Numbered from the stretch's first letter, positions 3,271-54,957 are shown. The stretch is 64,000 nt of DNA from Candidatus Pacearchaeota archaeon (GCA_035360455.1 DAOSAR010000001.1:3328-67327), one strand, 5' to 3'. The notes: a model not told the origin generated them from the sequence alone. Numbers and translations are program-made.

Positions 3271-3378
3271 TTTTACCCTACCCCTCAACTCACTATATCT
3301 CAGATGGGGGGAATAAGCGAGGTTGGGATCTTTACAGATAGTTCTCCTGCACAAAATTTGAAAAATATAAGAACCTCG
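3271..3378. repeat. Conserved intergenic element, copy 1 (TTTACC-N16-TATATC core plus about 70 nt)
   Basis: TTTACCctacccctcaactcacTATATCtcagatgggg...gcacaaaatttgaaaaatataagaacc aligns with 10073..10183. It lies directly 3' of the stop of ORF 3392..3610. Confidence 0.6.
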
Positions 3379-7611: not shown

Positions 7612-8598
7612 TTAATAAGAATTGCAAGAAACTCTGAGTTGATGGGAGGCAAGGTTGAGGAACATTGTTTTAGTTTGGTCTAAACTCTTGTACTCGTTAG
7701 CTACTTTTTCTGCTTTTTTTCTTAGGGCTCTTTCTCTGATCGCTAACTTCTCAGCTTCCTCTCTTTTTTTCTCTTCTTCGTGAGAGTAGCTTATAAGCTG
7801 GTGACCAAGAAAACAGAAAAAAAGAAAGATAGCTAAGCTTGATATTCTCCAGGTAAGAGTGGGAGCTAAAAATACTTGGATTAGCAATAATATTCCCATA
7901 ATTCCTACTAACATTTCTGTCAGAATAACCTTGATGTTAAAGAGATGATATTTGAGAATGGCAAAGGCAATGATTAGAGGGTAAAGAAATATTACAAAGT
8001 TTCCATAAGGATATAGTTCAAATCCATACCATTGAGGAAGATTAAAAAGACCGCCTATAGCAGCTATTCCTAAGGCTAAAATAAAATAACCAATCTGTTT
8101 TTTCTTTTCTCCTGTTAGGTGGAAATAATTTTTAATTAATGTTCCAAAAGTGATAACAACCAAGGTTAATCCCCAAACAATATTTAAATTAGCTACTATT
8201 CCTGCCTGCGGCCAATAAGAATAAAAAGAATAAGTCTTAAGCTTTGAAATAAAGAAGGGTGTGAATATCAAAATTATTATTAAAAAACTTATTGAATACA
8301 ACAAAATTAAACTTTTTTTTCTTCTTCCTTCTAAATTTAAAAGAATTAAACCAAGATGATAAAGAAATACTGATGAAAAAATTGAACCGACCATTAATAA
8401 TCTAAGAAAAAATAGACTTTTTTCTTCATTTTGAACTGCTTGCCAAAATCCATAATTTAACTGCCAAAAAGATAATGCCAAGCTAAACAAAAAGAAAATT
8501 TGATTTTCTTTTTTACTTTTATTCCTGAAATAAACAAAAATACCTAAAATTAAAATTAAAAAACAATTTATAAATCCTGAAAAAGCGAGAATACTCAT
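7612..8598 (-). CDS. Truncated sensor kinase paralog: TM sensor, linker and H-box start only, no catalytic domain
   Basis: A diverged polytopic N-terminus, then about 90 aa near-identical to the 551-aa kinase, ending ...LASHQLRVSCNSY*. Its start overlaps the methyltransferase stop (ATGA). Confidence 0.7.
   Translation of the reverse strand: MSILAFSGFINCFLILILGIFVYFRNKSKKENQIFFLFSLALSFWQLNYGFWQAVQNEEKSLFFLRLLMVGSIFSSVFLYHLGLILLNLEGRRKKSLILLYSISFLIIILIFTPFFISKLKTYSFYSYWPQAGIVANLNIVWGLTLVVITFGTLIKNYFHLTGEKKKQIGYFILALGIAAIGGLFNLPQWYGFELYPYGNFVIFLYPLIIAFAILKYHLFNIKVILTEMLVGIMGILLLIQVFLAPTLTWRISSLAIFLFFCFLGHQLISYSHEEEKKREEAEKLAIRERALRKKAEKVANEYKSLDQTKTMFLNLASHQLRVSCNSY
7633..7906. repeat. 274-bp direct repeat, copy B
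   Basis: See 4287..4560. Homology begins 21 nt after the stop codon side of the truncated ORF (tctgagttgatggga...). Confidence 0.9.
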
Positions 8599-9392
8599 AA
8601 TGGTTTGTTAACTTTGTTTACTAAAACTTGTTTTCCAAAGCTGATTTTCCATTTTGAATTTTGAAAACCAATTTGAATTAATAAATTTTCGTATTCTTCT
8701 TCGCTAAGAAATGTATACTCTTCGACTGGTGTAAAAAATTTTATCATTTTAATTGCAAAATATGGTAAAAAACATTTTTGTTTTATCCATTGACATGGGT
8801 TTAATAGATAAATTGAAGCAAGCAAAGCTCCTGTTAAACGACTAACATCTTTTTTGGGGGTGCTCCATATTAATACTCCACCGGGTTTTAAAATTCTATA
8901 TATCTCTTGAAAGATTACTTTCAGTGCATTTTTGCCTTTTTGTCCTTGGGATTCTATAATATACGTTATAACTTTACTCGATACAATTCCATCAAAATAG
9001 TTATCAGGAAATGGTAGTTTTTGAGAAAGATCAATATGTTGTAGTTTTATAGAAGAGTTGCCTAGTTCTTGGAGTCTTTTTTTAGCAGGTTCTAAATAAA
9101 GATCTCCTGCTATAATTTCTACTTCTCCTTTTGATTTTTCCAAGATTAGTTCTGTAACAGGAAGAGATCCACAACCAAGATCTAACCATTTTTGACCTTT
9201 TTGAGGATTAATAAATTCATTAATTACTTTTAATTCATTTTGATAATGCGGAAGATTTAAGAAAGCATCTCTATATTTGCTTATCATTAATTCTGCATAT
9301 TCTTTCCAAAACTCCCTTTCTTCTTCTTGAATTTTGTTTAAATCCTCTTCTCTTGACACGTTTTTTTTGTTTTGATAAGATTCTTGTGCCAT
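8595..9392 (-). CDS. Class I SAM-dependent methyltransferase
   Basis: WLDLGCGSLPVT (motif I), IIAGDL (post-I), FDGIVSS, LKPGGVLIWSTP. Confidence 0.75.
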   Translation of the reverse strand: MAQESYQNKKNVSREEDLNKIQEEEREFWKEYAELMISKYRDAFLNLPHYQNELKVINEFINPQKGQKWLDLGCGSLPVTELILEKSKGEVEIIAGDLYLEPAKKRLQELGNSSIKLQHIDLSQKLPFPDNYFDGIVSSKVITYIIESQGQKGKNALKVIFQEIYRILKPGGVLIWSTPKKDVSRLTGALLASIYLLNPCQWIKQKCFLPYFAIKMIKFFTPVEEYTFLSEEEYENLLIQIGFQNSKWKISFGKQVLVNKVNKPL

Positions 9393-9403
9393 ATATAAGT
9401 GGT

Positions 9404-9570
9404 AAGACAGCTTTCTTCATTTAAGTCTTTATTGGTTTTTGAATTTATATATATTTATCTATATAAAACAGAACAGAAGTTCTGTTTTATATATTTATTC
9501 CTTACCTTATTTTTTATTAATATTAACTATTAAGCTCAAAAACCTCAACAAAATAAAAGAAAGCTGTCTT
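9404..9570. repeat. MITE-like nested inverted repeat in the operon upstream region
   Basis: Perfect 14-bp terminal inverted repeat AAGACAGCTTTCTT (9404..9417) / AAGAAAGCTGTCTT (9557..9570). It encloses a perfect 12-bp hairpin ATAAAACAGAAC-agaa-GTTCTGTTTTAT (9462..9490). Confidence 0.6.
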
Positions 9571-9835
9571 TTATTTTAATTAGGTTAACCTTTGTGTTTA
9601 TTTTATACTCTTTGAGTGAAGATTGCAAAAAAATATTTAAAACCGACACTTTAAGAATTAAGAAGTTATTAAGTTCAAGAATTTAACGCAACATTATGGT
9701 AGTATACCATAAAGTAATAAGAAGCGTTAAATTCTATAAAAACATATCATCGTCTAAGTTTTATTAAATTAATAAATTTAATAAAGTTCAAATCTCTTTA
9801 TTAAAATGCAGACCGAAAATCAACTTTTCATTAAT

Positions 9836-9906
9836 TTATTTTCTCACTTAGCTTTGAATTAAATTAACCCAATTATGCCAGGCGTCTGTATTTTGTGGTT
9901 TATCAT
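9836..9906 (-). pseudogene. Fragment of a paralog of the 12142..12867 gene (last ~17 codons only)
   Basis: 9836..9883 matches 12142..12189 with 3 mismatches in 48 nt. It translates YDKPQNTDAWHNWVNLIQS* versus ...STNAWHNWINLIQSQVRK*. Upstream homology is lost and stops appear. Confidence 0.6.
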
Positions 9907-10072: not shown

Positions 10073-10183
10073 ATTTACCCCACCTTTCAACTCACTATTT
10101 CTCAGGTGGGGGTGGGAGGTAAAGTTGAGGTTCTTTGAGAAAGTGTATATGGTACTCGTACGCAATTTTTGAAAAATAACAGG
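10073..10183. repeat. Conserved intergenic element, copy 2
   Basis: TTTACCccacctttcaactcacTATTTCtcaggtggggg...cgcaatttttgaaaaataacagg. Contains a perfect 8-bp hairpin CCCCACCT-N18-AGGTGGGG. Confidence 0.6.
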
Positions 10184-10187
10184 AGGG

Positions 10188-10224
10188 TTTACCCTACTCC
10201 TCTACTCACTATATTTTCTAAGGG
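10188..10224. repeat. Conserved intergenic element, copy 3 (core only)
   Basis: TTTACCctactcctctactcacTATATTttctaaggg. It ends 1 nt before the stop codon of ORF 10226..10765. Confidence 0.55.
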
Positions 10225-10225
10225 A

Positions 10226-10765
10226 TCAATATTTTACTTTTTCCCAATCTGTATTTAAAATACAACCCTCTATGCATTCTTCCCTAGTTGAATAACCCTT
10301 AGTTGAAAAATCTATAGTTATAGTTGGAAAATCCTTCCAATATTTCCAATATGACCAAACCCCTTCTCCTTGTTGTGTAATTTCATAAGTGCATCGTTTT
10401 TTACAATCATTAACTTTTGCAACGTGATTAGAAATTATTATACTCCCTGTTACAATAATGGCTATAATAATTAACCAAAACCACCATTTTTTCCAGACTG
10501 GACTTTTCTCAACTTTTTCTCTATGTTGAAACTCCCAAATCCATTTATGAAAGTAATTTATAACTAAAGCTACTATTGCTGAAAAAGAAATTAAAGTAAA
10601 AAACATTCCAAATATTTCCCCTACTGAAGCCTCATCTTCATTTAGGCTTATAATAGTTATAACCGTCATTAAAACACTAATAATAGCAAAAACAGCAAAT
10701 TTAATTAAAAATTCTCTTTTAAAATTAAACTTAATATTAGATTTTTGTATTGGTTCTTTTTCCAT
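10226..10765 (-). CDS. Hypothetical membrane protein with a C-terminal 4-Cys extracytoplasmic domain
   Basis: Three predicted TM helices, including KKWWFWLIIIAIIVTG (the same WWFWL anchor motif as ORF 19797..20339). The tail has C..C...C..C. Confidence 0.5.
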   Translation of the reverse strand: MEKEPIQKSNIKFNFKREFLIKFAVFAIISVLMTVITIISLNEDEASVGEIFGMFFTLISFSAIVALVINYFHKWIWEFQHREKVEKSPVWKKWWFWLIIIAIIVTGSIIISNHVAKVNDCKKRCTYEITQQGEGVWSYWKYWKDFPTITIDFSTKGYSTREECIEGCILNTDWEKVKY

Positions 10766-11000
10766 AATTTTTAATTTTTTATTATAAATAGTGGTATCTT
10801 TTTATATTCTCTTAATTTATTAATAATTTTTTAATTATTTAAATTCTTCATTTTTTGGGTTTATCAAGTTTTTTGATTCTTGTATTGTATTGTATTATTC
10901 TCTTCAAAATAATTTACTATCCATAAAAAGATTTTTTTTATTATATTCTTTGCTTTTTTGAATTTGATCTTGGCTCATTTTTTTTCTTAATTTCTATATT

Positions 11001-12867: not shown

Positions 12868-13020
12868 ATTGTCGCAATGGATTTTATTTGAACGGCGTCC
12901 AATAGAAAAGGACTTCCGTTCTTATGACAATTCCTTTCGGAACTGTCTATCGTCTTTTGACGATAACCATTGCGACAAAAAAACAGAACGGAAGTCCGTC
13001 TCTATGTCGCAATGGATTTT
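12868..13020 (-). promoter_or_regulatory. Structured 5' leader with mutually exclusive helices
   Basis: TGTCGCAATGGATTTT at 12870..12885 and 13005..13020, with the inverted copy CCATTGCGACA at 12967..12977. Perfect 13-bp pair 12910..12922 / 12985..12997. Hairpins at 12948..12965 and about 12924..12946. Confidence 0.5.
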
Positions 13021-13110
13021 TATGCCATGTCCTTTTAGGATTTAGGCAATTAATGTTATAAATTTAAATTTTCAAAAAAAATAAAAAACAGAAGATCTCT
13101 TTTCTTTAAG

Positions 13111-23402: not shown

Positions 23403-23520
23403 TTGAAATTATATCAACGAATTACGAATCTAATACGAATTTACGAATGTAAGTTAAGGGTATTTAAGGACATTCACAGTTTGCAGCATTCGCATAAAAT
23501 TCGTAGATTCGCATCGTATA

Positions 23521-25983
23521 TTATTTTATTAACTTGACTTCAAAAGTAATTGGATCAACCTCTATTTCATTTCCCTCTTTTATTTCGCCTGCTAAAATTG
23601 CTTTAGCAATGTTGTTTTCTATTTTATTTTGAATTACTCTTCTCATTTCTCTTGCCCCAAATTGAGGATTAAATCCGAGCTCAACAATTTTTTGAATAAG
23701 GTCTTTACTTGGAAGAAATTTAATATTTTTTTCAAAAAGCCCTTTCTTCAAATCTTCAAGCATTACTTCAGCGACTTTTTCTAAGTTTTCTTTTGAAAGA
23801 GGCTTATAAATAATAACAGCATCGAATCGGTTTAAAAATTCTGGTTTAAATATTCCTTCTTTTAAAAGTTCATCTATAAATTCTTCTTTATATTCTTCTA
23901 AATTTTTCCCCTCTTTTACCGCTTCCCAAATTAATTCAGCTCCAGCATTAGAAGTAGCGATAATAATCGTATTTTTAAAATCAACACTTCTTCCTGCTCC
24001 ATCTGTTAAATTGCCTTCATCAAAAACTTGTAAAAATAAATTTAAAATATTTGGATGAGCTTTTTCAATTTCATCTAATAAAATAAGAGAAAAAGGATCC
24101 TCTCTTACTTTAGTAGTAAAATAACCAGGTTCGGTTGGCGTTCCAATTAAGCGATCTATAGAATCTAATGTTTGATATTCAGACATATCAAGTCTAATCA
24201 TCTTTTTTTCAGAACCAAAATAAACTTTTGCCAAGCATTTTGCTGTCTCAGTTTTGCCAACACCAGTTGGTCCTAAAAAAAGAAAATTGCCTATTGTCTT
24301 TTTGCGCTCTTGAATATCAGCTCTTGCCCGTCTTAAAGCATTAGCAACTTCTGAAACCGCTTCTTCTTGATCAATTAATCTTTGATGAATGAGGTCTTCA
24401 AGATTAAGTAATACTTCTTTTTCTTTTTGAGCTACTTTTTCTACTGGAATTTCAGTTTTTTCAGAAATTAAAGCTTCAACCACATCTGGAGTTATTTCTT
24501 GAGTTCCTTTTACTCTTAAAGCATAAATCACCACCTCCTCAAGAAGGTCAACTGCTTTTTTAGGAAAGGGAACAGTTTGAATATAACGATCTGAAAGATC
24601 AATAATTTCTTTAATTGACTGAAAAGGGAAAAAAACTTTCGCCTCCTCTTCAATTTTTAAAACTTCATCTTCAAGAATTAGCAAAGTTTCTTTTTTAGTC
24701 GGTGACTTTATTTCAATTTTCTCAAATTGACTTTGAATTTCAGGGACTTGTTGAACTATCTTATGAAAACCTTCATAAGTGGTAGTTCCAATTAATCTAA
24801 AGCTTGGAAAAGAAATATATTGACTTAAAACAAAAGAAATATCAACATTATCGGCAGACTCAACATTAACTTCGCGATTAATAAAATTATGAATATCTTT
24901 TATTACTAAAATCACATTTCCTGCCGCAACTGCCTCTTCAAATATTAATTTTAAAATACCATTAATATCTCCTCCTCTCTTACCTGTTGAAATTAAAAGA
25001 GGCATATCGATTTCAAGAACTCTTTGATAGTTTAAAGAAGGAAAACTCTCACCTTGATTAATTTTTCGAACAAAATTTTTTATTATTTCTGTTCTGCCAA
25101 CTCCTACATCTCCAACGAGAAGTGCGCAATTTCTTTCAGTTTTTATTAAAGCATTCTCTAATCTTTCAATTTCTTTTTTATGTAAAAAGGTTTCTGACAA
25201 AAGATTATTTCTCTCTCTCCTTGTCAAATCAGTTGAAAAATCATCTAAATTTATAGTATATCCTGCTGTCCAATCTTCGAAAAGAGCACCTTTCCTTAGT
25301 AAATTTTCTTTTTCCCAAAATCTTTTTTTTCGTTCTTCTTCAGACAAAATTCTTTTTTGCCATAAACATACTTCTTTTACATCATCCTTTGACAAGTGTC
25401 GACTTTCTAAAAATTCCCTCAAAAGTGGTTCTGTTTCTATTAAAGCAGGCAAAAGATCAAAAATAGTAATTTTTCTCCAAGTTTTTCTAAGAATTAGACT
25501 TAAGGTTTCCTCTACCTCTCTTAAATCCTTTCTTGTGCCTATAATTTTTTCTTTAAGCTCATTCTTAATTTTTTCTTGATCTAAAAGAAGACGCTTTGGA
25601 ATAAAACCAAGCTTGTCTGAAGACAAAAGATATAAAAGCAAAAGCAAAGTGAAATCACCTTCGTTTAAAAGAGCGAAATCAACAGCTTTTGCTGCTTCAA
25701 AATCTAAAAACTCAGCAAGATTTTCTGGGTTTTTAATTTCCGGATTTTTTAATTTCTGATTAAAAAAACAACGATAAAGAAAAAATATTCCCCAAAAGAA
25801 AAATGAAAAGTAGAGAAGATTTAATGGTAACTTAAAATTAAAAGGAATCGGAGAATAAATATTTATTAACGAGAAAAGAAATAAAAGAAAAAAAACTACC
25901 TCAAAAAACCTTACCAGCTTTAAGGAGAAAATCTTTGATAATTTTACTGCTTTAAAAATGGGAGCTGTTTGGGGATCGAACAT
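23521..25983 (-). CDS. Membrane-anchored Clp/Hsp100-family AAA+ protein with a degenerate first ATPase module
   Basis: Two N-terminal TM segments. NBD1 has GDVGVGRT (Lys to Arg) and VILVIKDIH instead of hhhhDE. NBD2 is intact: [23 protein letters not shown]. Confidence 0.8.
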   Translation of the reverse strand: MFDPQTAPIFKAVKLSKIFSLKLVRFFEVVFFLLFLFSLINIYSPIPFNFKLPLNLLYFSFFFWGIFFLYRCFFNQKLKNPEIKNPENLAEFLDFEAAKAVDFALLNEGDFTLLLLLYLLSSDKLGFIPKRLLLDQEKIKNELKEKIIGTRKDLREVEETLSLILRKTWRKITIFDLLPALIETEPLLREFLESRHLSKDDVKEVCLWQKRILSEEERKKRFWEKENLLRKGALFEDWTAGYTINLDDFSTDLTRRERNNLLSETFLHKKEIERLENALIKTERNCALLVGDVGVGRTEIIKNFVRKINQGESFPSLNYQRVLEIDMPLLISTGKRGGDINGILKLIFEEAVAAGNVILVIKDIHNFINREVNVESADNVDISFVLSQYISFPSFRLIGTTTYEGFHKIVQQVPEIQSQFEKIEIKSPTKKETLLILEDEVLKIEEEAKVFFPFQSIKEIIDLSDRYIQTVPFPKKAVDLLEEVVIYALRVKGTQEITPDVVEALISEKTEIPVEKVAQKEKEVLLNLEDLIHQRLIDQEEAVSEVANALRRARADIQERKKTIGNFLFLGPTGVGKTETAKCLAKVYFGSEKKMIRLDMSEYQTLDSIDRLIGTPTEPGYFTTKVREDPFSLILLDEIEKAHPNILNLFLQVFDEGNLTDGAGRSVDFKNTIIIATSNAGAELIWEAVKEGKNLEEYKEEFIDELLKEGIFKPEFLNRFDAVIIYKPLSKENLEKVAEVMLEDLKKGLFEKNIKFLPSKDLIQKIVELGFNPQFGAREMRRVIQNKIENNIAKAILAGEIKEGNEIEVDPITFEVKLIK

Positions 25984-36148: not shown

Positions 36149-37312
36149 CTATTGTTCACCTAATTGTGCCTCCAACTCCATTTCTTTTCCATTTCTTAAT
36201 ATTTTTAATTTAATCTTATCACCAACATTGTGAGAAAGAATTATTTTAGATAAAGTGTTTTTGGTTGTAATTTTTTGACCATCTATTTCTAAAATAATGT
36301 CATTTTCTTTTAACCCAGCCTTGTCTGCTGCACTTCCTGGGGTTACTGCTACATCTCCTATTCCACTTCCTCTCACCACCCAAGCGCCATAATCTACTGG
36401 CAAGTTATATTGTTTTTGTATATTCTCGTCAATTAAAACATGTCTTACGCCAAGAAAAGGATAAGTAATTTTCCCTGTAGCTTTTACGCTTTCTATTGCT
36501 TTTTTCGCTTGATTAATAGGAATAGCAAAACCAATATTTTCAGCACCTGAAGCCACAGCTGTATTAATACCAATAATTTCACCGGATAAATTTAAAAGTG
36601 GTCCTCCAGAGTTTCCTGAGTTAATCGCTGCATCAGTTTGGATTAATTGGTCTAATGTTTCTGCAATTCCTCCACCACTAGCTGTAATGCTTCTTGAAAG
36701 CCCAGAAACAACCCCCACAGAAACACTGTTTTGAAATTCTCCTAAAGCATTGCCAATGGCAATTACTGTCTGGCCAATTTTAAGATTATCAGAATCACCT
36801 AATGGTAAGGGAGTAAAAGATTCGCCTGACTTTGGATCAATTTTCAAAACTGCTAAATCCTGCGAAGAAGCTCTTGCTAAAACTTTAGCTGGATATTGTT
36901 CATTATTAGATAAAATTACTGTATAGTTAATATTTTCGTATTGAACAACATGTTTATTTGTCAAAATTAAACCATCAGAAGAAATAATAAAGCCCGTACC
37001 GCCACTCTTAATTTGTTGAGAAAAGAAGGGAATTCCTGGTATTGCTATTTCTCCTTCAGCTATAATTGACACTACACTAGGTAAAGCATCATTAACTACC
37101 TTTATTACCTGTTCTTCTTGACTGCTTGTAACTTCTTTTTCAATAATCTTAGGCGATGTTTCATCTGTTGTTTGAGTGGGAGATGTAGTATTTATTGAAT
37201 TTCCAAAAACTTTCATTACTTGGGGATAATAATTTATCGCCAAAACACCTCCGGCAAAACCGACTATTAAAGAAATAATGACTGATATAACAATAATATA
37301 TTGAGGTTTCAT
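36149..37312 (-). CDS. HtrA/DegP-family serine protease with a PDZ domain
   Basis: Start moved to MKPQYIIVISVII (ATG 37312) because the track's first 51 codons translate the repeat element. TNKHVV (His), DLAVLKI (Asp), GNSGGPLLN (Ser). Confidence 0.85.
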   Translation of the reverse strand: MKPQYIIVISVIISLIVGFAGGVLAINYYPQVMKVFGNSINTTSPTQTTDETSPKIIEKEVTSSQEEQVIKVVNDALPSVVSIIAEGEIAIPGIPFFSQQIKSGGTGFIISSDGLILTNKHVVQYENINYTVILSNNEQYPAKVLARASSQDLAVLKIDPKSGESFTPLPLGDSDNLKIGQTVIAIGNALGEFQNSVSVGVVSGLSRSITASGGGIAETLDQLIQTDAAINSGNSGGPLLNLSGEIIGINTAVASGAENIGFAIPINQAKKAIESVKATGKITYPFLGVRHVLIDENIQKQYNLPVDYGAWVVRGSGIGDVAVTPGSAADKAGLKENDIILEIDGQKITTKNTLSKIILSHNVGDKIKLKILRNGKEMELEAQLGEQ

Positions 37313-37693
37313 AAATTTATAAGGTGTGTGCACCAAAATGTTTTGGGGTATGGGTTCCTCCCATGTTTTGGTTCCAGGAAATAATCCTCCAAATTTGCTT
37401 TGCAAATTTGGAGACCACGTGGTCTCCAAAAATTGTTTTACAATTTTTGGAGTATTACGACGCAAGAAACCAGAATTTTACGAAAGTAAAATTACTGGTG
37501 TCTTGAGGGATGCTCCAAGAATACTTCGTATTCTTTTCGCCGAATTTACTTCGTAAATTCGAGCTCGAAACCAAAACTGCTTTTCTCTTATGAGGCATTT
37601 ATGCCGAATGTTTTGGTTCCAGAAAGATAGGAGCGTAGCGACGTAAGAAAACAGCTTGGCTGTTGTCTTACAGGAGGTCTGGAACCAAAACTG
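37313..37693. repeat. Composite hairpin-module element, locus 1 (about 2.5 units)
   Basis: GTTTTGGTTCCAG at 37365..37377 and 37610..37622. The reverse complement is at 37679..37691 and 37567..37577 (the latter 11 bp with one mismatch). 37497..37692 aligns with 43105..43310. Confidence 0.85.
37387..37452. promoter_or_regulatory. Three interlocked palindromes (candidate operator or RNA switch)
   Basis: CTCCAAATTTGC-ttt-GCAAATTTGGAG; TTGGAGACCACGTGGTCTCCAA (perfect 22-bp palindrome, 37408..37429); CTCCAAAAATTGT-ttt-ACAATTTTTGGAG. Confidence 0.5.
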
Positions 37694-37783
37694 CGGTGGG
37701 TGTAGGATTTGAACCTACGAGGGACGGTTTAGGTCCCACGGGTTAGCAACCCGTTGCTTTAAGCCAACCTCAGCCAACCCACC
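37694..37783 (-). tRNA. tRNA-Ser (anticodon GCU)
   Basis: GGTGGGT acceptor, anticodon stem-loop ACGGG-TTGCTAA-CCCGT, long variable arm, T-arm GTAGGTTCAAATCCTAC, discriminator G. Confidence 0.9.
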
Positions 37784-41515: not shown

Positions 41516-41639
41516 AGTTTTTTCTATCAACGAATATACGAATTTATTACGAATTTACAAACAAATATTCTATTTTATTATAGAACTAAATTAATTTGTA
41601 AATCCGAGAATGATTCGTAATTCGTTGATATTTTAATAA

Positions 41640-42263: not shown

Positions 42264-42941
42264 CTAAATTTCTTCTAAAATTTCTTTAACTTTTCTTACC
42301 AAAGCAATATTCTTTTGATAGTCCATTCTTATTGGTCCTAAAATTCCTACTACTCCATCCTCTAGTCCTCCCAAAATCAAACTTAAGCTTTCTTCTCTGC
42401 TAAATGGATTTTCTCTGCCAATATAAATTTTTATATCATTACCAATATCTTCTTTTTCGATTTTATCATATAATTCCTCAAATGCTTCTACTATTTCTAA
42501 AATTTCTTCTGGTTGATAAAATTCTGGCTGAGATAAAAGATAAGAAAGTCCTTGCCAGAAAAAATTTCTTTCCCAAAATACTATACTTAAATTTTTCGAA
42601 ACTAGCGCCATCAATTTTCCTAATTCCCTTATAATTCCTTCTCTGTCACGTTGATTTGTAAAAACTTCTTCAATTCTCTTTTCTACTTCGGAAGACAACC
42701 GTGGTTGGCAAAACTTTTTAATGAAAAATCGATAAGCCTTTTCGGTTGGAATTCTACCAGCTGAACAGTACGGTTGCCATAAATATCCTTTTTCTGTTAA
42801 CTCTACCATATCCCATCTAATCGTTGCTGGGCTTACATTTAAATTATAATTTTCCGCCAGCATCTGAGAGCTCACCGGTTCAGCAGTTTTTATATATTCT
42901 TTAACCACGCATTTTAAAATTTTTTCTTGTCTTTTTTCCAT
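42264..42941 (-). CDS. hrcA: Heat-inducible repressor HrcA, short form (225 aa)
   Basis: N-terminal winged helix RQEKILKCVVKEYIKTAEPVSSQMLAE...VSPATIRWDMVELTEKGYL. A CIRCE-like operator lies 50 nt upstream. Confidence 0.8.
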   Translation of the reverse strand: MEKRQEKILKCVVKEYIKTAEPVSSQMLAENYNLNVSPATIRWDMVELTEKGYLWQPYCSAGRIPTEKAYRFFIKKFCQPRLSSEVEKRIEEVFTNQRDREGIIRELGKLMALVSKNLSIVFWERNFFWQGLSYLLSQPEFYQPEEILEIVEAFEELYDKIEKEDIGNDIKIYIGRENPFSREESLSLILGGLEDGVVGILGPIRMDYQKNIALVRKVKEILEEI

Positions 42942-42973: not shown

Positions 42974-43001
42974 ATTATAATCAAAAAAAATTAGCAGTCA
43001 A
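42974..43001 (-). promoter_or_regulatory. Sigma-70-type promoter of the hrcA operon
   Basis: Minus strand: TTGACT (43001..42996), 16-nt spacer, TATAAT (42979..42974). The -35 hexamer lies inside the CIRCE right arm. Confidence 0.7.
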
Positions 43002-43017
43002 GAGGTCTAACTGCTAA
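42991..43017 (-). promoter_or_regulatory. CIRCE-like HrcA operator (variant)
   Basis: Minus strand: TTAGCAGTT-agacctctt-GACTGCTAA, versus consensus TTAGCACTC-N9-GAGTGCTAA. Same 9-N9-9 geometry. Confidence 0.8.
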
Positions 43018-43104
43018 ATAATTTTATAATTAAAATAAATAAAACTGCGAAAAAAACTTCTCGTAGTTTCTGCGCTTTTTTTAAAAAACCGAAACGGCTT
43101 GCCC

Positions 43105-43310
43105 GTGTCTTTAAGGGATGCTCAAAGAAAGCAAAGCTTTCTTTTCGCCGAATTCACAAAGTGAATTCGAGCTCGAAACCAAAACTGATTGAAGGTATGG
43201 AATTCTTTCCATGTTTTGGTTCCAGGAAGATAGGAACGTAGTGACGTAAGAAACCAAAATTTTATGAAATAAAATTGTTGGTGTCTTAAGGGAGGTCTGG
43301 AACCAAAACT
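43105..43310. repeat. Composite hairpin-module element, locus 2
   Basis: CTGGAACCAAAAC at 43297..43309 overlaps the secY stop. Its partner GTTTTGGTTCCAG is at 43213..43225, with a third arm at 43175..43185. Collinear with 37497..37692. Confidence 0.85.
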
Positions 43311-46991: not shown

Positions 46992-47387
46992 CTACCATAT
47001 CTCACACAATGCTTCTCCTCCTACATTTAATTTTTTGGCTTCCTTCGATGTTAAAAGTCCTTTTGGAGTAGAAACAATTAATATTCCGTAACTATTTTTG
47101 GGGAAATAAAGTTCTTTACTTTTAAAGTAAAGCCTTCTTCCTGGCTTTGAAATTTTTTTTACATCATGAACTTTTGATTCGCCATTCTCATATTTCAGCC
47201 TAATCACAATTCTTTTTTGAGGACTGTCAAGGGAAGCTGTTCTTTTTTTTACTGTTTCAATAAAACCTTCTTTTGCTAAAATTTTTGCTAATTGATAATT
47301 AATTTCTGAATAAGGAAAACTAACTGTTTTTTTATGAGCAGCTCCAGCATTTTTGATTTTTATTAACATTTCTGAAATTGGATCCAT
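46992..47387 (-). CDS. rpsH: Ribosomal protein S8
   Basis: DPISEMLIKIKNAGAAHKKTV...GGEALCEIW. Confidence 0.93.
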   Translation of the reverse strand: MDPISEMLIKIKNAGAAHKKTVSFPYSEINYQLAKILAKEGFIETVKKRTASLDSPQKRIVIRLKYENGESKVHDVKKISKPGRRLYFKSKELYFPKNSYGILIVSTPKGLLTSKEAKKLNVGGEALCEIW

Positions 47388-47579
47388 AGTGATAATACAA
47401 AGTTAGTCGCTCACCCTCTTCCAGAACTTTGTTCTGGCGCTCGGCTTTACCTCGCTTCGGGCTCGCTCTTAAGAAACCCTCGGTTTCTTACGTCGCTTCG
47501 CTCCTATTTTCCTATGTGGGGAAACCGGAGGGTTTCCCCAGTCCCTTTCCGATAGGGGACGCTTTTCTTACTTTCTTCT
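47388..47579. repeat. GC-richer hairpin-module spacer between S14 and S8 (related to the composite element, opposite orientation)
   Basis: CCAGAAC-ttt-GTTCTGG; AAGAAACC-ctc-GGTTTCTT followed by ACGTCGCTTCGCTCCTATTTTCCT (compare TTTCTTACGTCGCTACGCTCCTATCTTTCT on the other strand at 37630..37650); GGGGAAACC-ggag-GGTTTCCCC. Confidence 0.75.
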
Positions 47580-47765
47580 TTACCAAGATGATTTTTTTAC
47601 TCCTGGCAACAACCCTTTGTTAGCTAACTCACGAAAACAAATTCGGCAAAGACCAAAATCTCGCATATAACCTCTTCTTCTACCACAACGCCAACATCGT
47701 CTTACTTTCCGTGTTGAAAATTTTGGTTTTTTTTGACTTTTAATAACTTGACATTTTTTGGCCAT
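47580..47765 (-). CDS. rpsN: Ribosomal protein S14, zinc-binding type Z (61 aa)
   Basis: [23 protein letters not shown]. Confidence 0.93.
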
Positions 47766-48419: not shown

Positions 48420-48485
48420 AACCATCAACGAATTACTAATCTCTTACTAATGTACGAACATACGAATTCGTAATTCGTAAATTAT

Positions 48486-51615: not shown

Positions 51616-51707
51616 AATTTCTATACAAATTATAAATCCTTTGCTAGGTATACAAAAACATATATAAACATAGTTCGTAAATTCGACATCGATTCGTAAT
51701 TCATTGA

Positions 51708-51992: not shown

Positions 51993-52063
51993 ATCATTAT
52001 TTACGAATTACGAATCTTTATGAATATACGAATTCGCATAGATTCGTAAAGTAAATTCGTTGA

Positions 52064-54844: not shown

Positions 54845-54957
54845 CCAGGTTATTTCCCCATCTTTTCTATTAAATAAAAAAAATTGATTTAAAAAGAAAA
54901 TTCATGATAAATAAGAAATTCGTAAATTCGTAATGAATTTGTAATTCGTTGATCATT

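Follow-up and report, generated by a model that had tools for sequence, protein, structure and literature searches.

Two Arrays of a Structured Repeat Lie Beside the hrcA and htrA Operons

In the window, the whole stretch of 64,000 nucleotides (nt) that was analyzed, a non-coding element lies between the stop codon of secY and the heat-shock gene hrcA, and a related one lies between tRNA-Ser(GCT) and the htrA-clpB genes (Table 1). A sequence-only reading of the window had described both as an about 200-nt composite hairpin, collinear and in the same orientation. The two loci do share such an element, which was aligned over ~205 nt on the minus strand and had 81% identity in an ungapped core of 80 nt. 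It is not a single composite hairpin, as each locus contains two tandem units. The 13-bp closing helix (GTTTTGGTTCCAG...CTGGAACCAAAAC) was exact at both loci and enclosed 71 nt in the secY-hrcA copy and of 56 nt in the tRNA-Ser/htrA copy. The three compensatory stem changes proposed earlier were also present in the two-locus alignment (CGAATTCAC/GTGAATTCG versus CGAATTTAC/GTAAATTCG, AAGAAAGC/GCTTTCTT versus AAGAATAC/GTATTCTT, and TAAGA/TCTTA versus CAAGA/TCTTG). Past the spacer hairpin, each locus carries a second GTTTTGGTTTC arm followed by two perfect triloop hairpins. This second arm had been taken for an alternative pairing partner and is actually the 5' arm of unit 2.

In the secY-hrcA array, the first G of unit 1 doubles as the last base of the secY stop codon (TAG), and the predicted fold of this unit has a free energy of -30.1 kcal/mol (z = -7.4 compared with shuffled sequence). 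Unit 2 lacks its 3' arm. The segment from 43091 to 43188 is identical in 98 of 98 nt to an intact unit on another contig of the same genome (L009, 9275-9372), beyond which the similarity stops; the intact version of the truncated unit spans 9278-9395 of that contig.

Unit 1 of the tRNA-Ser/htrA array begins 1-2 nt past the tRNA gene and is predicted to fold with about -30 kcal/mol (z = -7.4 compared with shuffled sequence). The spacer that follows it was also found after a related unit in L009/L013. Unit 2 has extra hairpin modules in both junction strands, including an optional CTCCAAAT...ATTTGGAGACCAC module, and a predicted fold of -85.9 kcal/mol (z = -10.7 compared with shuffled sequence). 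Since its 3' arm was found at 37365-37377, this copy extends to 37365, ~130 nt past the end first reported. The trailing piece stops 10 nt before the likely ATG start codon of htrA at 37312. The mechanically called HtrA ORF (36149-37465, minus strand, 438 aa) begins instead at a TTG within the element, and arrays in other contigs likewise give rise to spurious ORFs, 75-125 aa long (e.g., L016, 2118-2489).

A degenerate third copy was detected with E = 8e-5 over the whole set of loci (1.9e-7 locally). It lies antisense to the ribosomal-protein operon, between rpsN (~47577-47763) and rpsH (46992-47387).

TABLE 1. Repeat units, spacers and neighboring features in the window.
Feature	Position	Strand	Description
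Unit 1, secY-hrcA array	43213..43309	-	Complete, 97 nt; covariance-model match 101 bits
Inter-unit spacer, secY-hrcA array	43186..43212	-	Small hairpin ATGGAAAGAATTCCAT, counterpart of the family's ATGGGAnnnnTCCCAT hairpin
Unit 2, secY-hrcA array	43091..43185	-	5' arm GTTTTGGTTTCGAG and two extra triloop hairpins; truncated, no 3' arm
CIRCE inverted repeat and overlapping hrcA promoter-like site (context)	42974..43017	-	Inverted repeat TTAGCAGTTAGACCTCTTGACTGCTAA
tRNA-Ser(GCT) (context)	37693..37783	-	Abutted by the second array
Unit 1, tRNA-Ser/htrA array	37610..37691	-	Complete, 82 nt; covariance-model match 97 bits
Inter-unit spacer, tRNA-Ser/htrA array	37578..37609	-	Hairpin GGCATAAATGCC
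Unit 2, tRNA-Ser/htrA array	37365..37577	-	Complete, 213 nt; from unit scan
Trailing piece, tRNA-Ser/htrA array	37323..37364	-	Hairpin ATGGGAGGAACCCAT, then degenerate 17-nt unit start ATTTTGGTGCACACACC
Degenerate third copy	47451..47537	+	Core kept, closing helix lost; covariance-model match 28 bits
Motif TTCGTAA(A)TTCGT	23416-23447, 41614-41626, 48467-48479, 51674-51686, 52002-52014, 54919-54931; 37550-37562		Last site inside unit 2 of the tRNA-Ser/htrA array

The Repeat Unit Is Modeled as a Three-Way Junction With Covarying Stems

A covariance model was built from 15 copies and gave 35 strong matches (77-120 bits). The array unit folds into a three-way junction of 80-215 nt, which combines near-invariant unpaired strands with variable hairpins. 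The closing helix P1 has 12-13 bp. Its GTTTTG/CAAAAC pairs are invariant, the next three pairs switch jointly between GTT/AAC (type A) and TCC/GGA (type B), and CC/GG follows. The 5' junction strand after P1 is C-rich (ACCTCCC-like). P2 reads TAAGA/TCTTA or CAAGA/TCTTG and contains a conserved C-U mismatch and a variable apical hairpin. It is followed by CGTC and then by either a variable P3 hairpin or the optional longer CTCCAAAT-hairpin-ATTTGGAGACCAC module, and a near-invariant TCCTATCTT strand precedes the 3' strand of P1. About 25 of the unpaired junction bases are near-invariant. The unit is usually trailed by the small hairpin ATGGGAnnnnTCCCAT and ACCCTCTA, so that most copies carry a non-palindromic tail of 24-27 nt beyond the 13-bp perfect inverted repeat that bounds the core.

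The proposed selection on structure remained strongly indicated when more copies were aligned. In a MAFFT alignment of 15 copies, 96% of the cells were paired and 14 of the 30 pairs showed changes on both sides, and sliding the pair partners lowered the pairing to 30-54%. In the alignment of 31 distinct copies to the model, 98% of the cells were paired and 105 cells had changed on both sides, compared with five that had changed on one side (G-U). The observed covariation values were reached by none of 500 shuffles. In the window genome, the variable hairpins have drifted to AT-rich sequence with pairing kept. The units have a GC content of 0.49-0.54, compared with 0.30-0.34 for the genomes, and their unpaired junction strands are near-identical between genomes whose one shared ORF has 55% protein identity.

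Both strands of the unit fold equally well, and G-U pairs account for 1% and 3% of the predicted pairs on the two strands (11 versus 36 among ~1050 pairs per strand), a difference too weak to name a functional strand. Near-absent G-U pairs and equal folding of the strands are the pattern expected of DNA palindromes or of single-stranded DNA substrates. This covariation pattern also fits a small number of events at the subfamily level and is unusual for functional RNAs that diverged long ago.

The Repeat Is Dispersed Among Unrelated Genes

A metagenome scan with the two helix arms identified 25 contigs; ~15 of them, low in GC content, share the internal core. About ten of the 25 hits were rejected as unrelated palindromes or chance matches with nothing but the arms in common (L007, L008, L010, L014, L018, L019, L024, L025, and L027-L029). 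Two arm hits in genome contigs (Tannerellaceae and Acidobacteria) are likewise chance matches, because the internal core is absent from both. Matching accession triplets in three metagenome-assembled genomes (MAGs), obtained for the HrcA protein of the window and for the sugar transferase of L009/L013/L143, assign the window and these contigs to the same genome. The contigs L009/L013/L143 hold two more arrays that are 95-100% identical to units of the window. One, antisense to its neighbors, is located between rplS and tRNA-Leu, and the other follows the sugar transferase gene and faces a tRNA cluster. At least five sites are thus present in ~80 kb of the window genome, two of them beside proteostasis genes.

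The other carriers have their copies next to genes for iPGM, ndk, RNase Y, mnmA, a release factor, a beta-CASP RNase, a flavodoxin, and a transglycosylase. With the local G-rich strand as reference, nine copies were oriented one way and seven the other, with GC skew being a poor proxy on short contigs. Phage and plasmid collections gave no BLAST match to a pair of A and B units, and no match to the 19-mer of the 5' end or to the 3' arm with its hairpin was found in viral contigs. The core pattern TTTCTTRCGTC-N-TCCTATCTT produced 96 viral hits, nearly all of them in one conserved coding stretch (...FLRHALEHSPYPIF...) that probably belongs to a methyltransferase gene. The few remaining hits (e.g., L046 and L065) have their own unrelated flanks and were dismissed as a false lead.

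In the Ga0078972-type organism (L015, L016 at ~1990-2180, L021, L026, and L017), a conserved module of ~190 nt, rich in AT, comes after the arrays. This module is a long imperfect palindrome and is repeated at at least five loci, so the repeat belongs to a larger composite element in this organism.

Arrays Abut tRNA Genes and Stop Codons and Differ Between Close Relatives

The arrays are arranged head to tail and consist of one to five unlike units followed by a truncated last unit, of which 5, 17, ~30, or 95 nt are left. Units are joined by CTCTA, CTCTATA, or CTCTAGTA, and the stretches between them (24-32 nt) are themselves conserved (ATGGGAnnnnTCCCATACCCTCTA). Almost every copy has YA (TA or CA) before its left (GTTTTG) end. 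The left flank is known for 14 arrays, six of which lie 1-7 nt from a tRNA gene, at either its 3' or its 5' end. The GTTTTG end faces the tRNA in all six, whichever strand the tRNA is on. The end of P1 lies 1-3 nt from the mature tRNA end in five of the seven tRNA-flanked loci listed and 6-7 nt from it in the other two. Three arrays (after secY, after ndk, and in L023) overlap a stop codon by its last base, the first G of the unit completing TAG. In relatives without the array, the stop codon of ndk is TAA or TAG, TAA being the usual one here.

Copy number and unit make-up vary at the same site. At tRNA-Asp, three units were found in L020 and one in L022. After ndk, L016 has five units and L012 at least three, and L134, whose NDK is 98% identical, has two different ones. 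No unit follows ndk in L030, L136, L137, and L140, with NDK identities of 83-91%. One antisense unit was detected two genes upstream in L030, and no copy within 20 kb in L136-L140. The array after the sugar transferase gene has no counterpart in a relative with 69% identity. Unlike unit variants (A, B, and long-P3 types) are mixed within arrays and recur at other loci, a pattern more easily explained by repeated insertion than by local duplication. No matching target-site duplication was found immediately past the right arm, nor was a clean empty site in a near-identical strain. Contig breaks often fall inside the elements. In the relatives without the array, ndk is followed by a structured-looking conserved stretch (ggtcctgggattagaaaattccggactaatcgaaa...cccgggaccat; L030 ~8880-9030, L136 ~10795-10945), which may be a small RNA gene.

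The secY-hrcA Array Is Separate From the hrcA Promoter and CIRCE

The sole strong promoter match of the hrcA region (TTGACT-16-TATAAT, 43001-42974, 11 of 12 matches) overlaps the CIRCE at 42991-43017. Since promoter and CIRCE are both downstream of the element, the element is not in the hrcA leader. The CIRCE-promoter arrangement is kept in relatives with 57-70% identical HrcA; their upstream neighbor is not secY, and no match to the model was found upstream of hrcA in any of them. Between tRNA-Ser and htrA no strong promoter was found, so that the array there is probably part of a tRNA-htrA-clpB transcript, as the 5' leader of htrA. The Shine-Dalgarno sequences of hrcA and htrA lie outside the structure and both start codons are unpaired. 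The gap to the start codon amounts to 47 nt at htrA (10 nt when the trailing degenerate unit is included) and to ~150 nt at hrcA. No copy accompanies the window's other Clp ATPase gene (23521-25983).

The sequence-only reading had proposed a stress-related leader, thermosensor, or insulator tied to the proteostasis operons and, as an alternative, a structured mobile repeat that had landed twice near heat-shock genes. The former is largely refuted, as copies lie beside unrelated housekeeping genes in both orientations. No preference for stress genes was seen, the neighbors including rplS/tRNA-Leu, the sugar transferase gene, rpsN/rpsH, ndk, iPGM, RNase Y, and mnmA. The latter is favored by the distribution of the repeat and by its absence from relatives. 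Gene context and orientation thus spoke against a stress-related role, whereas the covariation, which that reading had expected to fade with more copies if the role were absent, went the other way. An RNA thermometer of the ROSE or fourU type was rejected because the hrcA promoter lies downstream of the element and the start codons are unpaired, and a conserved cis-regulator of hrcA/htrA because the relatives have no element at the orthologous hrcA position.

Comparison With Known Structured Elements

Screening the window against Rfam 15 yielded no match to the repeat at the gathering thresholds (models including hammerhead, twister, pistol, hatchet, HDV-like, T-box, and the known thermometers). 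At E ≤ 10 on both strands only noise was obtained, the best non-tRNA hit reaching 23.9 bits (E = 2.2) where the cut-off is 49. No description of the family turned up in the literature, which was searched with sequences and keywords. We filed it among the structured interspersed repeats of bacteria.

Like Correia elements, ERIC, and the pneumococcal RUP and BOX, the repeat is short (~100-200 nt) and non-coding, and its copies are scattered between genes in both orientations. With the Correia elements of Neisseria and similar structured MITEs it shares inverted repeats, which here bound the core, length variants that arise from internal modules inserted at set points, the formation of stable hairpins in its RNA, a position that is often flush with genes, and an A-ending (YA) left flank. 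In contrast to Correia-type MITEs, its inverted repeat bounds only the core and leaves a non-palindromic tail (hairpin and ACCCTCTA), it has no clear TA duplication, no partner transposase was found, variants that are unlike each other stand head to tail in arrays, and the core, instead of being a simple long hairpin, is a three-way junction whose unpaired strands are conserved.

The REP/BIME (REPIN) elements mobilized by RAYT (IS200/IS605-type Y1) are similar in being structure-dependent, in their perfect Watson-Crick stems, and in forming mosaic arrays after genes. They are known to stabilize upstream mRNA 3' ends, and a single-stranded DNA substrate is presumed for both. However, REPs are 20-40 nt long, have a 5' GTAG, and occur as inverted pairs, whereas the units described here are 80-215 nt long, have one orientation per array, and carry no GTAG. 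This assignment was therefore rejected, since GTAG is lacking, the units are head to tail, no RAYT/Y1 gene was found in the scanned neighbors, and no strand bias was evident. IS200/IS605-derived palindrome-associated elements have similar subterminal hairpins at both ends, insert 3' of a fixed target of 4-5 nt, and show a strong replication-strand bias. In the present units, the two end-proximal hairpins are unlike each other and the left flank is conserved only as YA.

Integron attC sites (e.g., the 120-nt repeats of Vibrio cholerae) are likewise imperfect palindromes (~60-140 nt) that conserve structure, form arrays, and are recognized as folded single strands, the longer ones having branched tips. 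Their core order is RYYYAAC...GTTRRRY, which is reversed here (GTTTTGG...CCAAAAC). The repeat is not an integron array, as no cassettes or ORFs lie between the units, no integrase or attI was found nearby, and each genome has many small arrays.

TIGR-Tas arrays, which are also found in parasitic bacteria (PMC12045711), resemble the repeat as tandem non-coding arrays of small-genome bacteria in which a truncated end repeat is followed by a terminator. TIGR units are 36 nt long and consist of an edge repeat, a 9-nt spacer A, a loop repeat, and a 9-nt spacer B, with two repeats of 8-12 nt, box C/D motifs, and an adjacent tas gene encoding a Nop-domain protein (PMC12045711). They were excluded here by units of 80-215 nt without variable spacers, by the lack of box C (UGAUGA), and by housekeeping neighbors. 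CRISPR arrays (23-50-nt repeats with unique spacers of similar length) do not fit either, as the stretches between the units are themselves conserved in the family. Type III antitoxin arrays and known ribozymes were rejected on their defining features. ROSE and fourU thermometers and the CIRCE/HrcA operator are similar to the repeat as hairpins near heat-shock genes. Thermometers, however, sit in the 5' UTR and mask the ribosome-binding site, whereas the element lies upstream of the hrcA promoter and is separate from CIRCE. Two further ideas, a CsrA sponge, suggested by the GGA-rich purine strand, and an anti-Shine-Dalgarno mimic (ACCUCCCUUA), were dropped: B-type units read ACACCCCCGCC instead, and no CsrA was found among the small ORFs scanned.

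Origin and Possible Roles of the Repeat

On balance, we consider the repeat to be a new family of non-autonomous, structure-dependent repeats that insert or amplify beside one another at gene and tRNA boundaries and whose effects on RNA are incidental. Copy-number polymorphism, absence from relatives, and dispersal in both orientations together point to MITE-like dispersal. The units would be non-autonomous mobile or amplifying DNA, spread by some enzyme that recognizes the folded single strand, as suggested by the perfect Watson-Crick stems and the conserved junction bases, and arrays would grow by insertion beside an existing unit. The two arrays of the window may then have landed beside the heat-shock operons by chance and would be outside HrcA/CIRCE control. 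Their effects as transcripts would probably be incidental, with the very stable stems forming a 3'-end barrier or insulator behind secY and, in front of htrA, a structured spacer that separates it from tRNA-Ser. Neither the window genes scanned nor the array neighbors included a transposase, reverse transcriptase, or recombinase able to mobilize the units, and no transposase was found in ~80 kb of the window genome and ~170 kb of the other carriers. Since the inverted repeat bounds the core and not the trailing hairpin, the family is not a textbook inverted-repeat MITE.

The long-term conservation of the unpaired strands would also fit a function for the host. A structured RNA that benefits the host, such as a processing or punctuation site, a 3'-end stabilizer, an insulator, or arrays of small RNA genes freed by tRNA-processing enzymes, is a possible although rather less probable explanation. 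It is in line with a three-way junction whose near-invariant unpaired strands and covarying stems persist in 31 distinct copies, with conservation across genomes that are as diverged as their one shared ORF indicates, with helical modules that are optional and always inserted at the same points, a trait of many RNA families, and with units far richer in GC than their genomes. Arrays located between co-directional genes must be transcribed, and where P1 is near a mature tRNA end, cuts by RNase P or RNase Z would free the helix. Against it, either strand can be the sense strand relative to the neighbors, as in the third copy of the window, G-U pairs are almost absent and both strands fold equally, neither strand has an Rfam match even at E = 10, and copy number and unit make-up vary between near-identical strains, with the element absent at the same sites in relatives. 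A generic role in processing or termination that is not linked to stress is possible. Control of the hrcA-dnaK and htrA-clpB operons by a leader specific to heat shock, an RNA thermometer, or a stress insulator is, by comparison, highly improbable. Two of the five known copies in the genome do flank proteostasis operons that are only 5.6 kb apart, and the tRNA-Ser/htrA array is probably in the 5' leader of htrA. The hrcA promoter and CIRCE, however, lie downstream of the element, CIRCE is kept without it in relatives, the other three copies of the genome and all copies elsewhere adjoin unrelated genes, the second Clp ATPase gene of the window has none, and the Shine-Dalgarno sequences of hrcA and htrA are outside the structure.

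The polarity of the arrays raises a further explanation, namely copy-and-paste in which a genomic 3'-OH at the edge of a gene or tRNA primes reverse transcription or synthesis of the rolling-circle type. Every round of copying would begin at GTTTTG and end at a variable point, and the template could be a multimeric or circular self-processing RNA. Consistent with this are the complete GTTTTG end of every array and the varying truncation of its last unit, the fixed end that faces the tRNA in every case regardless of the tRNA strand, and the joining of unlike units. We regard it as quite unlikely, since no reverse transcriptase or HUH/Rep gene was found in ~250 kb of context, no known self-cleaving ribozyme model matched, and a simpler account is at hand: a deletion reaching past the gene-proximal end would be lethal, which leaves only distal truncations to survive. 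An unconventional reading, for which we see a limited chance, is that the repeat is either a new class of small structured RNA in Patescibacteria, with arrays freed by tRNA-processing enzymes, or a new structure-guided, polar-copied mobile element. In the latter case, a GTTTTG start primed at gene and tRNA boundaries could rebuild the TAG stop codon with its own G.

Inferring a thermosensor from a hairpin common to two heat-shock operons was tempting and proved wrong here, where the hairpin belongs to a dispersed repeat. More generally, covariation-based RNA discovery can be misled, because perfect Watson-Crick compensation is also shown by DNA palindromes. Repeats are thought to be scarce in the genomes of Patescibacteria. 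The present family, which has no Rfam match, documents one in such ultra-small genomes and has the unusual features of invariant unpaired strands in a three-way junction, arrays of unlike units, and a position flush with tRNA ends and stop codons. Elements of this kind break genome assemblies and create spurious ORFs. If the units proved to be a processed RNA or to spread by a new mobility mechanism, they would open a way into the biology of gene boundaries in organisms for which growth in pure culture is not yet possible.

Host Organism and Other Features of the Window

The MAGs of the window genome (e.g., GCA_035359945.1) are labeled 'Candidatus Pacearchaeota archaeon' in NCBI (HrcA at 42264-42941; L143). 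The bacterial genes of the window (HrcA/CIRCE, SecY, DnaK, and the ribosomal operon) and their Patescibacteria-like homologs make this look like a taxonomic mislabel. Judged from the names of HrcA and NDK homologs, a GC content of 30-34%, and the location of all 71 ORFs on one strand, the host looks like a Patescibacteria-like bacterium with a tiny genome. All 71 ORFs of at least 60 aa that were kept after overlap filtering (window positions 1-64000) and all seven tRNAs are on the minus strand, and the GC skew of the plus strand is -0.14.

A LOOT RNA (RF03000) was detected at 12926-13048 on the minus strand (63.8 bits, threshold 46.4), where it adjoins tRNA-Leu(TAA) and tRNA-Cys. The motif TTCGTAA(A)TTCGT is strongly over-represented in the window, with nine matches compared with 0.17 expected, nearly all of them intergenic. 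Strings resembling it (cgtaaattcgta) come after the arrays of L016 and L026, and the extra hairpins of long units contain TTCGTAA(A)TTCGT. The motif may be a promoter-associated or regulator-binding repeat of the lineage. Another short repeat family, TTTACCC(T/C)ACC..TCAACTCACTAT.TCTCAG.TGGGGG, has three copies (3272-3342, 10074-10144, and 10188-10231) near genes without known function. In L017, a large serine recombinase gene (8390-9883, minus strand) lies beside tRNA-Ala on the side opposite the repeat array; it probably belongs to an integrated element that uses the tRNA as attachment site and looks unrelated to the repeat. Finally, the FtsH gene of the window genome (L141, 2514-5678) contains an intein with a LAGLIDADG homing-endonuclease domain.
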